A stretch of 64,000 nucleotides of DNA from Flavobacteriales bacterium (GCA_038234075.1 JBBSUV010000001.1:93925-157924), one strand, 5' to 3'. Numbered from the stretch's first letter, positions 4,723-40,008 are shown. Notes: a model not told the origin generated them from the sequence alone. Numbers and translations are program-made.

Positions 4723-6057
4723 TTAAAGTCCGCGCACGGCGGTCTTGAAGCGGCGGCCGCGGTCCTCGTAGTTCTCGAACAGGTCGAAGCTGGCGCAAGC
4801 GGGGCTGAGCAGCACCACATCACCGGGCTCGCTGAGTTCGTAGCTCGTGTTCACGGCTTGATCGGCGGACAGGACATCCACCATGTTCGTCACGATGTCG
4901 CCGAAGGCCTTGTGGATCTTCTCATTGTCCACGCCGAGGCAAACGATGGCCTTCACCTTCTGGCGCACGAGGTCACGCAGCTCGTTATAGTCGTTCCCCT
5001 TGTCCTGGCCTCCCATCACCCAGATCACCGGCTTCTCCATGCTCTCGAGCGCATACCATGTGCTGTTCACGTTGGTGGCCTTGGAATCATTGATGAACTC
5101 CACGCCGTTCACCATGCCCACGCGCTCCAAGCGGTGCTCCACGTTCTGGAAATCGCCCAGCGCCTCGCGGACCACGTCCTTTCGCACTTCCAGTACGCGC
5201 GCTGCGATGCCCGCCGCCAGGGAGTTGTAGACATTGTGCTTGCCTTGCAGGGCCAGTTCCAAGATGCTCATGTTGAAGGTTGTTTGGTTCGTGGTGATGT
5301 GGATGTTGTCGTTCTGGAGATACCCGCCTTGCTCGACCGGCACACGGATGGAAAAGGGCCATTGACAGGCCTTCACGCTGTGGCGCCGCATTCCCTCGCG
5401 GGTCTGCGGGTCATCGGCGCAGTAGATGAAATGGTCGCCCGCATCCTGGTTCATGGTGATGCGGAACTTGCTGTCCACGTAGTTCTCCATCCGGTTGCCG
5501 TAGCGGTCCAGATGGTCCGGCGTGATGTTGGTGAGCACGGCGATATGCGGCTTGAGGGTGCGCGTGCCGTCGAGTTGGAAACTGCTCAGCTCCAATACAT
5601 ACATAGGATGGCTTTCCTTCGCTACCAGTCCGGCGAAGGAGGTGCCGACGTTCCCTGCCAATCCGACGTCCATGCCGGCTTTCGAAAGGATGTGGTGCAC
5701 GAGCAGCGTGGTGGTGGTCTTTCCATTGCTGCCCGTGATGCCGATGATGGGCGCATTCACGTAGCGCACCGCGAATTCGATCTCTCCGATCACCGGTACA
5801 CCTTTATCGCGGAGTGCGCGAATGATGGAGGCCGTTTCCGGGATGCCCGGGCTCTTCACCACCTCATCCGCTTCAAGCACCGTTTTCACGGTGTGGCCGC
5901 CTTGCTCGTAGGGAATGCCCGCCTGGTCCAAACGCTTGCTGAAATCCTCCGGGATCAGGCCCGCATCGCTCACGAACACGGGGATACCCTGCTTCTTCGC
6001 GAGGAGCGCCGCCCCCACTCCGCTTTCCTGTGCACCGAGCACCACCAGCTTCTTCAT
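4723..6057 (-). CDS. murD: UDP-N-acetylmuramoylalanine--D-glutamate ligase
   Basis: [13 protein letters not shown]-loop, Mur ligase family, dcw position between mraY and ftsW. Confidence 0.92.
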
Positions 6058-34878: not shown

Positions 34879-35934
34879 ATGAAACGCAACCTTCTCATCA
34901 CCGGCGGCGCCGGCTTCATCGGCAGCCATGTTGTGCGGCTCTTCGTGAATAAGTACCCGCAATACCGCATCGTGAACCTCGACGCGCTCACCTACGCGGG
35001 GAACATGGAGAACCTGAAGGACGTGGATGGTGCGGCGAACTACGTCTTCGTGAAGGCGGACATCCGCGACGCCGACGCCATGGACAAGGTCTTCGCGGAG
35101 CATGCCATCGATAGCGTGATCCATCTCGCTGCGGAAAGCCACGTGGACCGCAGCATCAGCGATCCCATGGCCTTCGTCAACACGAACGTCATCGGCACGG
35201 CCAACCTGCTGAACGCGGCCAAGGCCTATTGGAAAGCGGACTTCGCAGGAAAGCGCTTCTACCATGTGAGCACCGATGAGGTCTACGGCTCGCTGCATGA
35301 TGGTGGCTTCTTCACGGAGGAAACACATTACGATCCGCAAAGCCCATACAGCGCCAGCAAGGCGGCGAGCGACCACTTCGTCCGCGCGTACGACAATACC
35401 TACAAACTGCCCTTCGTGATCAGCAACTGCAGCAACAACTACGGCAGCCACCAGTTCCCCGAGAAGTTGATCCCCTTGATGATCCATAACCTCCGCGAAG
35501 GCAAGCCGCTGCCCGTGTACGGCAAGGGCGAAAATGTGCGGGACTGGCTTTGGGTGGAGGACCATGCTCATGCGATCGATGAGGTGTTCCACAAAGGCAA
35601 GGATGGCGAGACCTATAACATCGGCGGGCACAACGAGTGGAAGAACATTGACCTCGTGAAAGTGTTGTGCTCCATAATGGACAAGAAGCTGGGCCGCAAC
35701 GCGGGCGATAGCGCGAAGCAGATCACCTACGTCACCGACCGCGCGGGGCACGACCTGCGCTACGCCATCGATGCCGGCAAGATCGAGCGGGAGTTGGGCT
35801 GGAGGCCGAGCATCACTTTCGAGCAGGGCTTGGAGCAGACCGTGGATTGGTATCTTGCCAATGACCAGTGGCTCCAGGATGTGACTTCCGGAGCTTACCG
35901 GGATTATTACGACGAACAGTACGCCAAGCGTTGA
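34879..35934 (+). CDS. rfbB: dTDP-glucose 4,6-dehydratase
   Basis: ITGGAGFIGS motif, YSASK catalytic motif, RmlB family. Confidence 0.9.
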   Translation: MKRNLLITGGAGFIGSHVVRLFVNKYPQYRIVNLDALTYAGNMENLKDVDGAANYVFVKADIRDADAMDKVFAEHAIDSVIHLAAESHVDRSISDPMAFVNTNVIGTANLLNAAKAYWKADFAGKRFYHVSTDEVYGSLHDGGFFTEETHYDPQSPYSASKAASDHFVRAYDNTYKLPFVISNCSNNYGSHQFPEKLIPLMIHNLREGKPLPVYGKGENVRDWLWVEDHAHAIDEVFHKGKDGETYNIGGHNEWKNIDLVKVLCSIMDKKLGRNAGDSAKQITYVTDRAGHDLRYAIDAGKIERELGWRPSITFEQGLEQTVDWYLANDQWLQDVTSGAYRDYYDEQYAKR

Positions 35935-36683
35935 TGAGCATCTTGGGAAACCTCTTCGGAAAAGGGCGGCAGGCCATGCCTCCCGTTGACCTTGGGGTGC
36001 TCAAGTGCGATGTGCATTCGCACTTCATCCCGGGTATCGACGATGGCGCACCTACCGTCGAGGCCAGCTTGGAACTGCTCCGGGCCATGCACGACCTCGG
36101 CTACCAGAAGGTGGTCACTACGCCACACAGCATGGCCGACGGTTATAAGAACCCGCCGGAGGTGATCCTGGGAGGCTTGGAGAAAGTGCGGCGTGCGATC
36201 AAGGAGGAAGGTCTGGCGATCGAGATCGACGCAGCTGCGGAATACTACCTGGACCACGACTTCTTGGAAAAGACCAAGACGCAGAAGCTGCTCACCTTCG
36301 GTATCGACATGGTGCTCTTCGAACTGCCTTTCATCAGTGAGCCTTCCATGCTATTAAGCGCCGTGTTCGAGCTGCAGACGCAAGGCTACCGCGCGGTGTT
36401 GGCCCATCCGGAGCGCTACCAGTACTGGTACACCGACATGAGCATGATGGAAAAGCTGAAGGACCGCGGCGTGCTCTTCCAGCTGAACATGATCGCACTC
36501 GCCGGTGCTTACGGGCCCGCCACGAAGAAGGCGGCGGAGAAGATCGTCGACCTGGGCTGGTACGACCTCGTGGGAAGCGATTGCCACAGCATGAAGCACA
36601 TCGAGGCGATCCACGCGGCTCGTACCGAACCCTATCTGCACAAGCTCATCGACAGCGGGAAGCTGCTGAACGCGACGTTGTAG
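35934..36683 (+). CDS. Capsular polysaccharide biosynthesis protein-tyrosine phosphatase, PHP family (CpsB/YwqE-like)
   Basis: CDVHSHFIPGIDDGA PHP-domain metal-binding motif. Confidence 0.75.
   Translation: MSILGNLFGKGRQAMPPVDLGVLKCDVHSHFIPGIDDGAPTVEASLELLRAMHDLGYQKVVTTPHSMADGYKNPPEVILGGLEKVRRAIKEEGLAIEIDAAAEYYLDHDFLEKTKTQKLLTFGIDMVLFELPFISEPSMLLSAVFELQTQGYRAVLAHPERYQYWYTDMSMMEKLKDRGVLFQLNMIALAGAYGPATKKAAEKIVDLGWYDLVGSDCHSMKHIEAIHAARTEPYLHKLIDSGKLLNATL
36597..36683. repeat. 87-bp direct repeat, copy A (3' end of cpsB)
   Basis: About 90% identical to 38017-38103. Confidence 0.8.
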
Positions 36684-36689
36684 GCGGGT

Positions 36690-37853
36690 CTAATCCAGTG
36701 CATTTTCCAAGAGTTTCCAGACCGAAGCCAACGAACACACTTGAATGCCGTGCCCGAATGAGTGGTCGCGTGCATTTGGTGTGATCACCAATCGCACTGG
36801 TGCATTAACCGCTTCAAAGGCCAAGCGGTTTCCGGTGGTCAGTTCCGGCGCATTGCTCGTCTTGATCTCGATGGCCACCTTGGCCTTGGTACCTTGAGTG
36901 ATCACCAGATCCAGTTCAGAGCCGTCCTGTGTACGGAAGAATGAAAGTTCCGCGCGGCGGTCCAGCCAGGCCCGTACCTGTTGCACCACGAAGCCTTCCC
37001 ACGAATGGCCGCGGATGGGAACCGCAAAGAGCGCATCGTGAGAACGGACCGATGCCAGTGCATGCAATACGCCGCTGTCCGTGATGTAGATCTTCGGGGC
37101 CCGTGTCAGCCGCTTGCGCACATGCACGTGGTGACTGGGCAAGGTGAATGTCATGTAGGCCTGCTCGAAAAACCGCAGATAGGTCTTGATGGTAGGCCCG
37201 CTAAGACCCATCGATTTACCCAGCATGGCCATATTCAGCACATTTCCGTGTACAGCGCTGAGCATCCGGAGCAACTGGGTGGTGCTTGCCGGGTCTGCGC
37301 CAAGTCCCAACGCGGGCAGGTCCCGTTCCGTGAAGGAGCGCAGGATGTCCCCGACCACTTGGAACGCATCCGCATCTGTTCCCGCAAGGAACGCGTCCGG
37401 ATAACCTCCCCGGAGCCATAGCTTATCCACTTGCTTGGCCCCGACTTCTTGCAGCGAGAATGGGAACAGGTCCAAGTAAGTGATCCTTCCAGCCAAGGAT
37501 TCCGAGGCTGCTTGCACAATGGCCGGCGAACTCGATCCCAGCAGAAGGAAGCGACCCGGCCTGCGGTCCCGGTCGATCAAGGTGCGTAGCAAGGGGAAGA
37601 GTTCCGGCATGCGCTGCACCTCATCGATCACTACCAGTTCATGTGCATGGGCCAAGAGGAACGGCTTGGGGTCAGCAAGAACAGCGACGTCATCGGGGTC
37701 CTGAAGGTCCAAGCGCACGTATGGAAGTCCAAGCTCCTTGACCAACTGTACGGACAAGGTGGTCTTGCCCACCTGCCGGGCACCGAGTATGGCCACAGCG
37801 GGGCGTTTCCGCAAGCGGTCCAAGGCAAAAGAGGCCAAACTGCGTTTGATCAT
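36690..37853 (-). CDS. AAA+ ATPase with C-terminal DUF4143 domain
   Basis: Walker A GARQVGKTT and Walker B VVIDEVQ, typical ATP-binding protein/DUF4143 architecture. Confidence 0.8.
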   Translation of the reverse strand: MIKRSLASFALDRLRKRPAVAILGARQVGKTTLSVQLVKELGLPYVRLDLQDPDDVAVLADPKPFLLAHAHELVVIDEVQRMPELFPLLRTLIDRDRRPGRFLLLGSSSPAIVQAASESLAGRITYLDLFPFSLQEVGAKQVDKLWLRGGYPDAFLAGTDADAFQVVGDILRSFTERDLPALGLGADPASTTQLLRMLSAVHGNVLNMAMLGKSMGLSGPTIKTYLRFFEQAYMTFTLPSHHVHVRKRLTRAPKIYITDSGVLHALASVRSHDALFAVPIRGHSWEGFVVQQVRAWLDRRAELSFFRTQDGSELDLVITQGTKAKVAIEIKTSNAPELTTGNRLAFEAVNAPVRLVITPNARDHSFGHGIQVCSLASVWKLLENALD

Positions 37854-37865
37854 GCGTGCCGAATA

Positions 37866-37902
37866 CCCTGCAAATGTAAAATTTCATTTTAGAATTGCAG
37901 GG
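37866..37902. repeat. Palindromic hairpin ccctgcaa-N21-ttgcaggg upstream of the ATPase start
   Basis: 8-bp perfect outer stem plus an inner taaaat/atttta stem. Followed on the + strand by tacggcttttgtg. Confidence 0.4.
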
Positions 37903-38016
37903 TACGGCTTTTGTGCGCCTTGGGTTTTGCGGGGCCAAAGACGATGTCCACTGTTAGAAAGCCACAACAGATCGAAACGCAGGGTCCCGAGACGGAGACC
38001 CGGCGCGAGGGAATAG

Positions 38017-38103
38017 CACATCGAGGCGATCCACGCCGCAAGTACCGAACCCTACCTGCACAAGCTGATCGAAAGCGGGAAGTTGCTGAACGCAACGTTG
38101 TAG
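38017..38103. repeat. 87-bp direct repeat, copy B (in-frame remnant of a cpsB-like 3' end)
   Basis: Translates to HIEAIHAASTEPYLHKLIESGKLLNATL*. Differences from copy A are mostly synonymous. A TAG immediately precedes it. Confidence 0.8.
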
Positions 38104-38142
38104 ACATCACGTAAGGCCCGAGAGCCTGATAATGCAGCTGGA

Positions 38143-38176
38143 ATAAAGAAGGGCCGCCCGAAGGCAGTCCCCCGCT
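38143..38176 (-). terminator. Rho-independent terminator downstream of lipoprotein gene
   Basis: Minus-strand hairpin gggactgcc-ttcg-ggcggccc followed by ttctttatt. Confidence 0.45.
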
Positions 38177-38194
38177 CATTCGCATTTACAGGAG

Positions 38195-38650
38195 CTACTT
38201 ATCATCCAACTTGAAGTAGGCCTTCACCTTATCATAATTGGTGACGTCGAGATCGGTCGGGATCATTCCTGAACTCGAAATGGCAACCACCTCGAATGTC
38301 GTCGATGGGGTGCTTGTGCCCGTATGAAGAATTGAAACTGTACCTGAATAATATATATATCGATGATCAACTCCATTAGCGGTGTAGGGCATGGCGAAAG
38401 TCAGTGAACCTGACTTTTCATAGACCAATACGGCACCTGTAGCGATAATGTCATCCGTAATGAAAGGGACCTGGATATCGACATTAGACCAACCCAGAAA
38501 ATAATACCAATCGCTGGCGTTCACAGTGAAGGTCTGGGAATGGACATTCGCGTTCCCTTGGGGTCCACGGGGTCCTTCAACAGCATCTTTTTTGCATCCG
38601 ATCAAGAAAGATACAATGATGGCAACTGCGAGGAGTGTGTTCGTCTTCAT
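38195..38650 (-). CDS. Hypothetical lipoprotein (low-GC islet)
   Basis: Signal peptide plus lipobox (FLIGC). GC clearly lower than the surrounding DNA by inspection. Confidence 0.55.
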   Translation of the reverse strand: MKTNTLLAVAIIVSFLIGCKKDAVEGPRGPQGNANVHSQTFTVNASDWYYFLGWSNVDIQVPFITDDIIATGAVLVYEKSGSLTFAMPYTANGVDHRYIYYSGTVSILHTGTSTPSTTFEVVAISSSGMIPTDLDVTNYDKVKAYFKLDDK

Positions 38651-38930
38651 TCTTGTTCAGGTTCTGGAACCAAATCTAGGATACATCGCCCCAACGCGAG
38701 CGGTCCACATCACAGGTGGCGAAATGCGCATCACCATGCACGTGAACAGCACTCCGATCCAGAGACCGATGGGCAAAAAATGGATCCGCATGTTCCGTGA
38801 TGGTTCCATTGCAAACAGGAACACGGCGATGATCGGCGCCCGGATCGCAAAGGGAAAATGCCCTCGCCGATCAGATCAAGCTTTTTCCTCCATCCATTAG
38901 GCACCTACCGTGGATGGAAAAAAGGAGCTT

Positions 38931-39806
38931 TCACGCCGCGCTCGTTGCCACTTCCTTGTCCACCTTCTTGAACAAGCCTTGGAGCACATTGCCGGGGCCG
39001 CATTCCACGATGTTGTCGGCACCATCGGCAAGCATGTTGCGCATGATCTGTGTCCAACGCACCGGGGCGGTGAGTTGAGCGATGAGGTTGGCTTTGATGC
39101 GGGCGGGATCCTTACGGCCCGTGGCATCCACGTTCTGGTAGATGGGGCAGCGCGGGTCCACGATGGGCGTAAAGGCAATGGCCGTGGCCAATTCGGCGCG
39201 GGCGGGCTCCATCAGTGGGCTATGGAAAGCACCACCCACAGGCAGCAATAAGGCGCGTTTCGCACCGGCGGCCTTCAGCGCTTCACAAGCGGCATTCACC
39301 GCTTCCAGCGTACCACTGATCACCAACTGGCCGGGGCAGTTGTAGTTGGCAGGCACCACGATACCGGGAATGGACCTGCAGATCTCCTCCACCTTTTCAT
39401 CCTCCATGCCGAGGATGGCAGCCATGGTGCCGGGCTGTGCCTCACACGCTTTCTGCATGGCATTGGCACGTGCGGCCACCAGCTTCAGTCCATCGCTGAA
39501 CTCCATCGCTCCGGCGGCCACCAAGGCGCTGAACTCACCAAGAGAGTGCCCCGCGACCATGTCCGGCTTGAAGGCATCGCCCATGGTCTTCGCCTTGATC
39601 ACACTATGGATGAAGATCGCCGGCTGTGTAACGTTGGTCCGCTTCAGGTCCTCATCGCTGCCGGAGAACATCACATCGGTGATGTTGAAACCGAGGATGT
39701 TGTTGGCATGCTCGAAAAACACACGGGCGTTGGCATCGGACTCATAGAGTTCCTTGCCCATACCGGGAAACTGGCTGCCTTGGCCGGGGAAGACGTATGC
39801 TTTCAT
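38931..39806 (-). CDS. fabD: Malonyl CoA-acyl carrier protein transacylase
   Basis: GHSLGEFSAL active-site motif, FPGQGSQ N-terminus. Start at MKAYVFPGQGSQ. Confidence 0.9.
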   Translation of the reverse strand: MKAYVFPGQGSQFPGMGKELYESDANARVFFEHANNILGFNITDVMFSGSDEDLKRTNVTQPAIFIHSVIKAKTMGDAFKPDMVAGHSLGEFSALVAAGAMEFSDGLKLVAARANAMQKACEAQPGTMAAILGMEDEKVEEICRSIPGIVVPANYNCPGQLVISGTLEAVNAACEALKAAGAKRALLLPVGGAFHSPLMEPARAELATAIAFTPIVDPRCPIYQNVDATGRKDPARIKANLIAQLTAPVRWTQIMRNMLADGADNIVECGPGNVLQGLFKKVDKEVATSAA

Positions 39807-39823
39807 TCCGCAGAATATGGTTT

Positions 39824-39831
39824 CAAAGATA
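39824..39831 (-). promoter_or_regulatory. Candidate Bacteroidota -7 promoter element TAtcTTTG upstream of fabD
   Basis: Minus-strand tatctttg lies about 20 nt upstream of the fabD ATG and is preceded by a 9-bp-stem hairpin (gggtccgcc/ggcggaccc at 39832-39852). Confidence 0.35.
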
Positions 39832-40008
39832 GGGTCCGCCTGTGGCGGACCCATCATGACGTTTTAACCACAGACCGTGCTTCGCCGAAGCGGCTTCGCC
39901 TAGGCGCAGTGATGCAGATGGCGCAGATAAATTCAAAGACGGTGACCCTTCACTTATGCACGCTTCAGATCTGCCTTGTCCAGTCCTTTCCGCGTCATCT
40001 GCGTTCCG

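Follow-up and report, generated by a model that had tools for sequence, protein, structure and literature searches.

The 3′ end of cpsB occurs twice in the window (the whole 64,000-nt stretch of Flavobacteriales DNA analysed here, with positions counted from its first letter), and the second copy is probably a functionless recombination scar derived from the cpsB gene of a related strain. The comparisons below point to one-sided, homology-facilitated illegitimate recombination, in which the orphan copy most likely arrived together with the neighbouring lipoprotein gene.

The duplicated cpsB tail and its genomic setting

The intact cpsB gene (35934-36683, plus strand; Pfam PF19567, E = 1.7e-41) encodes a CpsB/CapC PHP-type tyrosine phosphatase and is the final gene of a conserved ugd-rmlB-cpsB block, with orthologues of 63-97% identity in loci L002-L026, L139 and L140. 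Its last 89 nt, including the TAG stop (copy A, 36595-36683, plus strand), recur at 38015-38103 on the same strand (copy B) with 81/89 identities and a start-to-start spacing of 1420 nt; blastn gave an E value of 2e-30 in the 64-kb window, where it found no third copy. The repeat of the cpsB end in the original prediction is thus real, although two nucleotides longer than the 87 reported. Both edges of the repeat are sharp, flanking identity being no better than random, and in each copy the TAG stop forms the right edge.

Copy B translates in frame to HIEAIHAASTEPYLHKLIESGKLLNATL followed by the stop, and an in-frame TAG (38014-38016) directly precedes it. The two copies differ at 8 positions, comprising six synonymous changes, one R-to-S and one D-to-E replacement; from these 8 substitutions only, we obtained pS = 0.30, pN = 0.031 and pN/pS = 0.10, the same ratio as among cpsB orthologues. 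The copies differ in an allelic fashion, and the proposal that copy B is the tail of a second, allelic cpsB agrees with this ratio. Copy A is the functional cpsB end, and those differences that could be polarised onto it with outgroups are all synonymous. Copy B is about equally distant from copy A and from the cpsB tails of L002 and L139 (81/89 in each case). The tail motif RTEPYLHKL is kept in most of the 120 cpsB homologues among the matches listed; the E variant is common there, the R-to-S replacement is present in 0 of the 120, and a B-type tail is absent from all of them. The same arrangement with both repeats was looked for in relatives, and copy B was found in no other lineage compared. 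The 38 nt that follow the orphan stop (38104-38141, plus strand) contain AGGCCCGAG, located 10 nt past the stop; this sequence lies likewise downstream of cpsB in L002 and L139, which have no ATPase gene, and is missing from the flank of copy A.

On the other side of the interval stands fabD, encoding malonyl-CoA-ACP transacylase (38931-39857, minus strand; Pfam PF00698), the first gene of a conserved fabD-Bax1-folE block. In ten other loci (L002, L003, L006-L008, L012, L013, L025, L139 and L140) the site is empty, cpsB facing fabD across 12-305 nt, and L002, L003 and L139, among others, carry a single cpsB tail. The empty sites of the closest relatives without the ATPase gene bear out the original suggestion of a variable or acquired interval; L139 and L140, the closest cpsB relatives, lack both the ATPase gene and the lipoprotein gene of the window. 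Tail fragments of the anchoring genes recur at this site: a cpsB tail follows a ParE-like gene pair in L016 and a GT61 gene in L019, and L023 carries 201 nt of a fabD tail at 85% identity with pN/pS of 0.06. The cpsB tail copies reach back from the stop to different inner ends, over 89 nt in the window, ~44 nt in L016 and ~63 nt in L019. The interval between ugd-rmlB-cpsB and fabD-Bax1-folE is a hot spot for the gain, loss and exchange of small accessory genes. NCBIfam searches returned no match for the ATPase, the lipoprotein or the L016 and L019 cargo, and Rfam returned none in 36400-39100; no integrase, transposase or tRNA gene was found within about 5-9 kb.

The ATPase gene between the copies

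The gene enclosed by the two copies (36690-37853, minus strand) encodes a DUF4143 AAA+ ATPase with a C-terminal PD-(D/E)xK-type motif. Its product scored above the gathering threshold for both AAA_14 (E = 1.9e-26) and DUF4143 (E = 1.1e-37) in Pfam, aligned over its full length with the family profiles and matched the PADLOC model PDLC04790 (PDC-S01) with an E value of 4e-85, as well as six more PDC-S01 models. PDC-S01, in which an ATPase is fused to a PD-(D/E)xK domain, is reported to be a candidate defence system awaiting validation and to rank fourth in frequency among prokaryotic defence candidates (PMC12988326). The Walker A and B motifs and the nuclease motif (D315...E329-x-K331) are intact; across 32 homologues G29, K30, T32, D77, E78, D315 and E329 are invariant and K331 nearly so. 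The structure model (pLDDT 91) has the archaeal AAA+ ATPases 2fna and 2qen, and then RuvB, as its nearest solved folds, and a sequence search of the PDB gave a single weak match, to 2fna.

The original prediction suggested that the event which created the repeat had brought in this gene, and here the comparison points the other way. The ATPase gene lies 3-7 nt past the cpsB stop not only in the window but also in L015, L123-128, L129/130 and L131-133. No tail copy is present at those ATPase loci with sufficient upstream flank (L015, L123-128 and L129/130), the upstream sequence of L131-133 being too short to show one, and L134, which is ~96% identical to the window, also has the gene without the orphan tail. 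Synonymous divergence of the ATPase gene is 1.2-2.3 relative to L015, L123 and L129, where flanking genes have values of 0.6-1.5; relative to L131 it is 0.68, alongside 0.56 for rmlB and 0.91 for cpsB. Recent horizontal transfer of the gene into the same site is ruled out by these dS values. Because the gene occupies the same site elsewhere without a tail copy, its dS mostly equals or exceeds that of its flanks and its GC content (0.58, with 0.586 for the window) is that of the host, sequence comparison identifies it as an old resident of the site in at least five lineages, and not as a newcomer. Its dN/dS is 0.05-0.11, and it is under purifying selection. The copy matches the PDC-S01 models and keeps the ATPase and nuclease motifs; its behaviour is that of a gene passed on vertically and lost several times over, and not of one that was mobile recently.

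A 41-nt palindrome (37864-37904; DNA hairpin energy -17.4 kcal/mol, z = -7.2) lies 10 nt upstream of the ATPase ATG. It is identical at 41/41 positions in L015, despite only ~80% identity between the ATPase genes at the DNA level, and is also found in L123, L129, L131 and L134. Across the family it occurs at 32 of 80 ATPase homologue loci, compared with 2 of 183 control ORF starts, and it persists alone, in the same place, in L006, L009, L012 and L140, all of which lack the ATPase gene. The hairpin had been taken to mark the recombination junction; it lies 110 nt from copy B, away from that junction, and is a conserved feature of the ATPase family that belongs to the gene unit as a probable operator or promoter.

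The divergent tract and the origin of copy B

The closest comparison is with L134, a 2.7-kb MAG contig that contains homopolymer indels and stops short of cpsB. Identity between it and the window is ~96% across fabD (99% at the amino acid level), the spacer, the palindrome and the ATPase gene. The 110-nt spacer (37905-38014), which contains a terminator-like hairpin (37972-37990, minus strand), is ~97-99% identical in L134 and has no homology in the other ATPase-bearing lineages. L134 lacks exactly 128 nt of the window (38014-38141), namely copy B and the following 38 nt, and is only 50-85% identical over 38142-~38760. Sliding identity against L134, at ~96% on either side, thus delimits a divergent, recombinant tract of ~750 bp (38014-38760), and it is from this comparison that copy B emerges as the outer end of the tract. 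The left edge is abrupt, identity at 38014/38015 changing from 57/60 to 0 across the 128-nt gap, whereas the right edge is gradual, identity rising from 46-53/60 to 57-60/60 between ~38730 and ~38850. Copies of the hexanucleotide GGAATA (38008-38013 and 38139-38144, plus strand) bracket the 128-nt indel in the L134 alignment. This 6-nt microhomology is only suggestive, because the junction could not be cleanly rebuilt from the L134 sequence and a cpsB allele.

The tract carries a lipoprotein-like gene of 151 aa (38195-38650, minus strand; an ORF call with no Pfam match), with a terminator-like hairpin downstream of it (38154-38167, minus strand; terminator-like site search). The gene is a highly divergent allele, with 57% aa identity to the L134 copy, and homologues other than that of L134 lie in unrelated genomic contexts. 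The segment had been described as acquired, and its divergence from L134 bears this out; its low GC (0.46) is no evidence of recent arrival, a reading ruled out by the L134 allele, which is low in GC too (0.49). Next to it lies a frameshifted ORF for a small membrane protein (38657-38904, minus strand; frameshift read by eye). Its homologue in L002 and L139 occupies the spacer between cpsB and fabD (blastn matches at 38814-38893 and 38813-38996, respectively).

These observations would be explained if the ancestor of the window had been L134-like, with cpsB, the ATPase gene, the palindrome, the 110-nt spacer, a lipoprotein allele, the small ORF and fabD in that order. A fragment from a related strain in which cpsB adjoined the lipoprotein gene, with no ATPase gene between them, would then have replaced the resident lipoprotein tract. 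Its right end would have been resolved by a homologous crossover near 38760, and its left end, 89 nt inside the donor cpsB, would have been joined illegitimately to the end of the spacer at 38014/38015, beside GGAATA. In this way the tail of the donor cpsB would have ended up downstream of the ATPase gene, together with its stop and the next 38 nt. We infer from the alignments the direction of the exchange, with the window as recipient of the lipoprotein tract, as well as the joining mechanism and the route of DNA entry; against this direction, L134 could itself be the recombinant. Searches with cpsB and lipoprotein homologues found no donor carrying copy B on a full-length cpsB beside the lipoprotein allele of the window.

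The direction may have been the opposite, and this is essentially what the original prediction had in mind. An ATPase-less recipient with a tail-B cpsB, the lipoprotein gene and fabD would have received the 3′ part of cpsB together with the ATPase gene, palindrome and spacer, through a homologous crossover in or upstream of cpsB and an illegitimate join 89 nt before the stop of the recipient cpsB. Geometry and allelic signature would be the same after such an exchange; moreover, the closest cpsB relatives, L139 and L002, lack the ATPase gene, and the sequence that continues from copy B is of the kind usual at loci without that gene. We nevertheless consider it unlikely, since L134 has the ATPase gene, palindrome and spacer joined to a different lipoprotein allele and no copy B, so that at least two extra events would be needed, one to replace the lipoprotein tract and one to remove the tail exactly, and since cpsB aligns with L002 along its length with no break in identity or mosaic boundary.

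A second possibility is that an ATPase cassette inserted after cpsB and duplicated 89 bp of its target, copy B drifting thereafter. Insertion of restriction-modification genes with long target duplications has been described (Nobusato 2000, as cited in Furuta et al. 2010, PMC2853133), and the window shares with those cases a repeat of more than 30 bp that is single-copy where the insert is absent, a single gene of nuclease type with no mobility gene, and overlap with the 3′ end of a neighbouring gene. Within the ATPase family, flanking direct repeats are found at ~18 of 80 metagenomic homologue loci, compared with 6 of 310 control ORFs. However, at about one-third of these ~18 loci, and at about half of those with repeats tight to the ORF, the repeat is the family palindrome itself on both sides, and true copies of neighbouring sequence are confined to L098/99 (metH), L107, L071 and perhaps L082; the enrichment over control ORFs is weak because these are so few. 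In the window, the flanked ATPase gene is no newcomer and the closest relative keeps it while lacking one of the repeats; it stands unduplicated at the same site in four other lineages and in L134, and its divergence equals or exceeds that of the flanking genes. The 38 nt past the stop of copy B, which lie outside the repeat, are also missing from L134. Finally, the window repeats are 9% diverged in an allelic pattern, unlike the tabulated cases, with about 93 to 100% identity (PMC2853133), and by our own calculation two or fewer replacements among 8 differences would have p of about 0.03-0.04 if copy B had decayed neutrally following an in-place duplication. In view of the pN/pS of 0.10 and of L134, we reject in-place duplication followed by drift and regard target duplication in general as improbable here.

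Duplication of a gene 3′ end with restoration of an intact gene is the classic signature of an integrative element. Copies A and B could on that pattern be the attL and attR sites of an element that targets the cpsB 3′ end and supplies a replacement tail (compare the discussion in PMC2853133), the duplicated end and intact target being as expected, but this is very improbable: the only genes between or beside the copies are the ATPase gene, the lipoprotein gene, cpsB and fabD, and integrase or recombinase genes are absent for about 5 kb around, as are tRNA genes; the differing inner boundaries of the tail copies in the window, L016 and L019 leave no constant crossover point; and the interval contains only the long-resident ATPase gene. 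Chance similarity or an assembly artefact has nothing in its favour except that the window comes from an assembly, and can be practically dismissed in view of the blastn significance, the identical arrangement in the independently assembled Logan contig L001 and the 8 differences, which exclude a collapsed or duplicated read.

Known systems and significance

One-sided transfer from a related strain, the reading we prefer, has known counterparts. In homology-facilitated illegitimate recombination (de Vries & Wackernagel 2002; Prudhomme et al. 2002; Meier & Wackernagel 2003, all as cited in PMC5361080; see also PMC3240628), a linear fragment is anchored by homology at one end and joined through microhomology at the other, so that non-homologous DNA is trapped; the window likewise has a sharp left edge, a gradual right edge and a tract between them. 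The differences are that the event in the window is reconstructed by comparing natural genomes and that the trapped piece is the tail of an allelic gene of housekeeping type, giving the appearance of a direct repeat. A further parallel is offered by the orphan 3′ ends of T6SS effector-immunity, Rhs and CDI loci (PMC5361080), where a conserved 5′ anchor is followed by variable downstream sequence, older modules are displaced in sequence by incoming ones with 3′ ends and downstream genes left stranded, and the same mechanism has been proposed; unlike those loci, the window has no toxin-immunity logic, what is stranded amounts to only 89 nt from a gene for a phosphatase, and an ATPase-nuclease gene is retained in between.

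It is conceivable, if rather doubtful, that the DUF4143/PDC-S01 ATPase-nuclease and its palindrome form a discrete cassette, the palindrome doubling as operator and recombination site, and that the nuclease provokes local breaks that give rise to the hot spot and its tail scars. This reading is allowed by several observations: in each of the six lineages with the ATPase gene, homology extends precisely as far as the outer edge of the palindrome; six distant homologue loci have a palindrome on either side of the ORF; solo copies remain in place in four relatives without the ATPase gene; a clean indel of 1172 nt, which takes out the ORF and nothing else, separates L009 from L015; and three other homologues lie between diverged neighbour-tail copies. 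Those at L098/99, L107 and L071 leave room for a role of the ATPase in scar making.

A direct repeat bracketing a gene is not proof that the gene is an insert: here the ATPase gene is the oldest element, and the repeat would stem from an exchange of neighbouring sequence. With tails of 91% identity now on both sides of the ATPase gene, recombination between the two could loop it out cleanly. Such scars are useful for annotating gene remnants and for dating gene flow; they reveal no new mechanism and represent a known kind of event. Lying between a block for polysaccharide synthesis and a fatty-acid/folate block, the locus is a small hot spot of recombination in uncultured Flavobacteriales, where gene tails have been left as scars four times independently and a widespread candidate defence gene has been lost repeatedly. 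Perhaps more important for the understanding of PDC-S01 is the start-codon palindrome, which can persist on its own after the gene has been lost.

The repeated cpsB 3' end and its variable surroundings

The last 89 nt of cpsB, including its TAG stop (36595-36683, copy A), recur at 38015-38103 (copy B), with 81 of 89 positions identical and a start-to-start distance of 1420 nt. Within the 64-kb window the copies match with an E-value of 2e-30, and a search of the same window yielded no third copy of the cpsB tail. The diverged repeat described in the original prediction was thus confirmed, together with the surrounding gene calls: cpsB (35934-36683, PF19567), the AAA_14 and DUF4143 ATPase (36690-37853, minus strand), a lipoprotein-like ORF of 151 aa without a family match (38195-38650, minus) and fabD (38931-39857, minus). 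Similarity ends sharply at either edge of the repeat, the right edge being the stop codon in both copies; copy B keeps the reading frame, with an in-frame TAG just ahead of it (38014-38016), and of its eight differences from copy A six are synonymous and two replace a residue (R to S and D to E). GC content is 0.46 in the lipoprotein gene versus 0.586 in the window, and 0.58, no deviation, in the ATPase gene. An independently assembled contig, L001, has an arrangement identical to that of the window. Genes for an integrase or transposase are absent to a distance of ~5 kb from the repeat, and tRNA genes to ~8 kb.

Scanning species-representative genomes for cpsB recovered 41 loci, which belong to uncultured Flavobacteriales and Cryomorphaceae. 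The closest relatives (L002, L003, L006, L007, L008, L012, L013 and L025, and also L139 and L140) have cpsB and fabD side by side and convergent, only 12-305 nt apart, so that the DNA from the cpsB stop (36683) to ~38650 is extra in the window relative to that layout. In many other lineages the interval is filled by 0.8-3 kb of small, unrelated genes, and this varied content marks it as a hot spot between the conserved blocks ugd-rmlB-cpsB and fabD-Bax1-folE; its variability is as the original prediction suspected. In one relative, L131 (1318-2579), protein identity to the window is 97% for rmlB but falls to 80% for the cpsB beside it, with a cpsB dN of 0.123 versus 0.045 for L002, a contrast suggesting that, in one of the lineages, cpsB is a mosaic or underwent allelic replacement. 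In the ATPase-bearing locus L129 (1-4000 and 8059-8687), Fic/DUF4172, DUF4007 and a >1000-aa ORF lie beyond the palindrome that precedes the ATPase gene, in place of fabD, and rmlB is separated from ugd by an inserted DUF433/DUF5615 pair; this content looks like a defence island.

Copy B at the edge of a divergent tract

The closest match to the lipoprotein is P0122 (57% identity), encoded on the 2.7-kb MAG contig L134, which runs collinear with the window and reaches ~96% identity in fabD (99% at the amino acid level) and in the 110-nt spacer, palindrome and ATPase gene. Window positions 38014-38141, comprising copy B and 38 nt past its stop, are exactly missing from L134, and alignment with sliding identity gave only 50-85% over 38142 to ~38760. 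On the left, this divergent tract has a sharp edge, bracketed by GGAATA at 38008-38013 and 38139-38144; the right edge is gradual. The gap in L134 and the adjoining low identity place copy B at the outer end of a ~750-bp tract, unlinked to the ATPase side. The lipoprotein gene, with a terminator-like hairpin of its own, is part of the tract, whose drop in identity agrees with the proposal that the lipoprotein segment was imported next to the cpsB tail. A lipoprotein homologue of 45% identity is found on L135 (1143-5471) in an island with a DDE transposase, a DUF433/DUF5615 pair, an Mrr_cat fragment and HTH regulators, a setting which indicates that the lipoprotein family travels in accessory regions. 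Beside fabD, a small membrane-protein ORF (38657-38904, minus) is apparently frameshifted into two overlapping ORFs, and its intact counterpart occupies the cpsB-fabD spacer in L002 and L139; the frameshift may reflect genuine pseudogenization or an error in the sequence, L134 differing there by homopolymer lengths.

Copy B had been read as the tail of an allelic cpsB, and the substitutions agree: the copies differ at pS 0.30 and pN 0.031, and the resulting ratio of 0.10 equals the one between cpsB orthologues. Under neutral drift after duplication in place, site counts predict ~60% replacements, and two or fewer among eight changes would have a probability of ~0.03-0.04. The A-specific changes that could be polarised with outgroups are all synonymous, and both replacements fall on copy B, whose E variant is common among cpsB alleles and whose R to S change occurs in none of the 120 cpsB homologues listed. 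With this allelic pattern and the lone R to S change, copy B looks like a genuine allele with about one decay mutation. Copy B is about equidistant from copy A and from the cpsB tails of L002 and L139 (81/89 each), and AGGCCCGAG is located 10 nt past its stop and likewise after the cpsB stops of L002 and L139, both of which lack the ATPase gene. The sequence points to a source locus where cpsB probably had no ATPase gene behind it; a search for cpsB homologues and their loci did not find the donor genome.

In the simplest, single-event history, whose direction and joining mechanism we infer, an L134-like ancestor probably acquired DNA from a related strain without the ATPase gene, in a fragment that started 89 nt inside the donor cpsB, crossed the lipoprotein gene and reached into the small-ORF region. 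Its right end would have been set by homologous recombination near 38760 and its left end by an illegitimate join to the resident spacer. The outcome matches homology-facilitated illegitimate recombination as described, a process also proposed for the 3' gene ends left orphaned in T6SS and Rhs arrays (PMC5361080; PMC3240628). The mirror image, import of an ATPase tract into an ATPase-less recipient, would yield the same geometry but requires extra events to account for L134, and we consider it unlikely.

Gene-tail remnants at other loci

Comparable tail copies were found in three further cpsB-fabD intervals: ~44 nt of cpsB after a ParE-like toxin pair in L016 (6708-6751 and 7373-7416), ~63 nt of cpsB after a GT61 glycosyltransferase gene in L019 (6687-6750 and 7965-8028), and 201 nt of fabD after a 120-aa ORF in L023 (8448-8648 and 7881-8081; 85% identity, pN/pS 0.06). 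These remnants are independent and share the same hot spot. Their inner ends vary from case to case, which argues against a fixed att site, and their outer end is the stop codon in every case, as expected if each remnant stays joined to its original downstream flank. Beyond this interval, other DUF4143 homologues lie between the intact 3' part of a neighbouring gene and its diverged remnant: in L099 (3364-3950 and 5251-5833; also in L098) the repeated piece is ~585 nt of a metH-like gene at 82% identity, the remnant carrying a stop and indels, and further cases are L107 (15-169 and 1525-1724) and L071 (3651-3871 and 5521-5802). With pN/pS of 0.19-0.34 (0.19 for the metH tail of L098/99), the copies at these loci appear allelic rather than neutral in pattern.

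The ATPase gene and its palindrome

The original prediction also placed the ATPase gene in an acquired segment and the hairpin at the recombination junction, and neither proposal held. In four further lineages the ATPase gene occupies the same site, 3-7 nt past the cpsB stop and in the same orientation, with a palindrome 10-13 nt ahead of its ATG (amino acid identity to the window 86% in L015, 84% in the L123-128 group, 83% in L129/130 and 91% in L131-133), and no cpsB tail copy was found in those ATPase-bearing lineages having enough upstream sequence. Synonymous divergence of the ATPase gene (1.2-2.3, window versus L015, L123 and L129) is at least as high as that of the flanking ugd, rmlB, cpsB, fabD, Bax1 and folE (0.6-1.5), and its dN/dS is 0.05-0.11. 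Such values are those of a vertically inherited gene under purifying selection that has been lost repeatedly, not of a recent arrival.

The window palindrome (37864-37904; DNA hairpin energy -17.4 kcal/mol, z -7.2) lies 110 nt from copy B and belongs to the ATPase gene. The window and L015 share it at 41/41 positions, against only ~80% identity in the coding DNA, and homology among all ATPase-bearing lineages ends exactly at its outer edge. A strong palindrome occurs in the 70 nt ahead of the ATG in 32 of the 80 metagenomic homologues surveyed (L043-L122, 37-64% identity), versus 2 of 183 control ORF starts. The family palindromes are 35-50 nt long and 0-16 nt ahead of the ATG, and a half-site, CCYTGCAA, recurs with a constant span of 35 nt. 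The inner half of the window palindrome holds TACATTTG, which fits the Bacteroidetes -7 promoter motif TAnnTTTG, and on this basis the palindrome is read as a putative operator overlapping the promoter. Palindrome sequence changes along with the ATPase protein; the comparison suggests that the palindrome may be bound by the ATPase's own winged-helix domain.

Solo palindromes stand between cpsB and fabD in the ATPase-less relatives L006 (6783-6824), L009 (4279-4318), L012 (6776-6817) and L140 (~4989-5025), and are up to 95% identical to that of the window (81-95% in the three scored). Between the collinear L009 and L015, mostly 82-89% identical in DNA, a clean 1172-nt indel takes out the ATPase ORF only and leaves the palindrome; after loss of the gene, the palindrome persists alone. 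At six distant homologue loci, one copy of the palindrome just precedes the start and another just follows the stop, bracketing the ORF (L056, 392-435/1636-1679; L065, 2136-2187/3375-3426; L073, 315-365/1564-1614; L094, 3896-3938/5146-5188; L102, 3960-3998/5152-5190; L104, 3961-4001/5152-5192). It is unlikely that the palindrome also serves as a recombination site. Restriction-modification genes have been reported to insert with long target duplication (PMC2853133); for the ATPase this idea was dropped, since the flanking direct repeats that seemed enriched in the family are in many cases the palindrome itself (~1/3 are the palindrome on both ORF sides, and about half among those tight against the ORF).

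The ATPase protein matches the PADLOC candidate defence family PDC-S01 (E 4e-85), a very common ATPase fused to a PD-(D/E)xK domain whose defence role awaits validation (PMC12988326); DUF4143 has been placed in the PD-(D/E)xK superfamily (PMC3424549). Among 32 homologues, D315...E329-x-K331 and the Walker A and B residues show no or almost no variation, and the structure model, a confident one (pLDDT 91), has as its nearest solved folds the archaeal AAA+ ATPases 2fna and 2qen, then RuvB; NCBIfam, Rfam and PDB sequence searches added nothing. Copy B is a recombination scar of an already known kind, and the more unusual material, peripheral to this result, is the conserved start-codon palindrome of PDC-S01-type ATPases.
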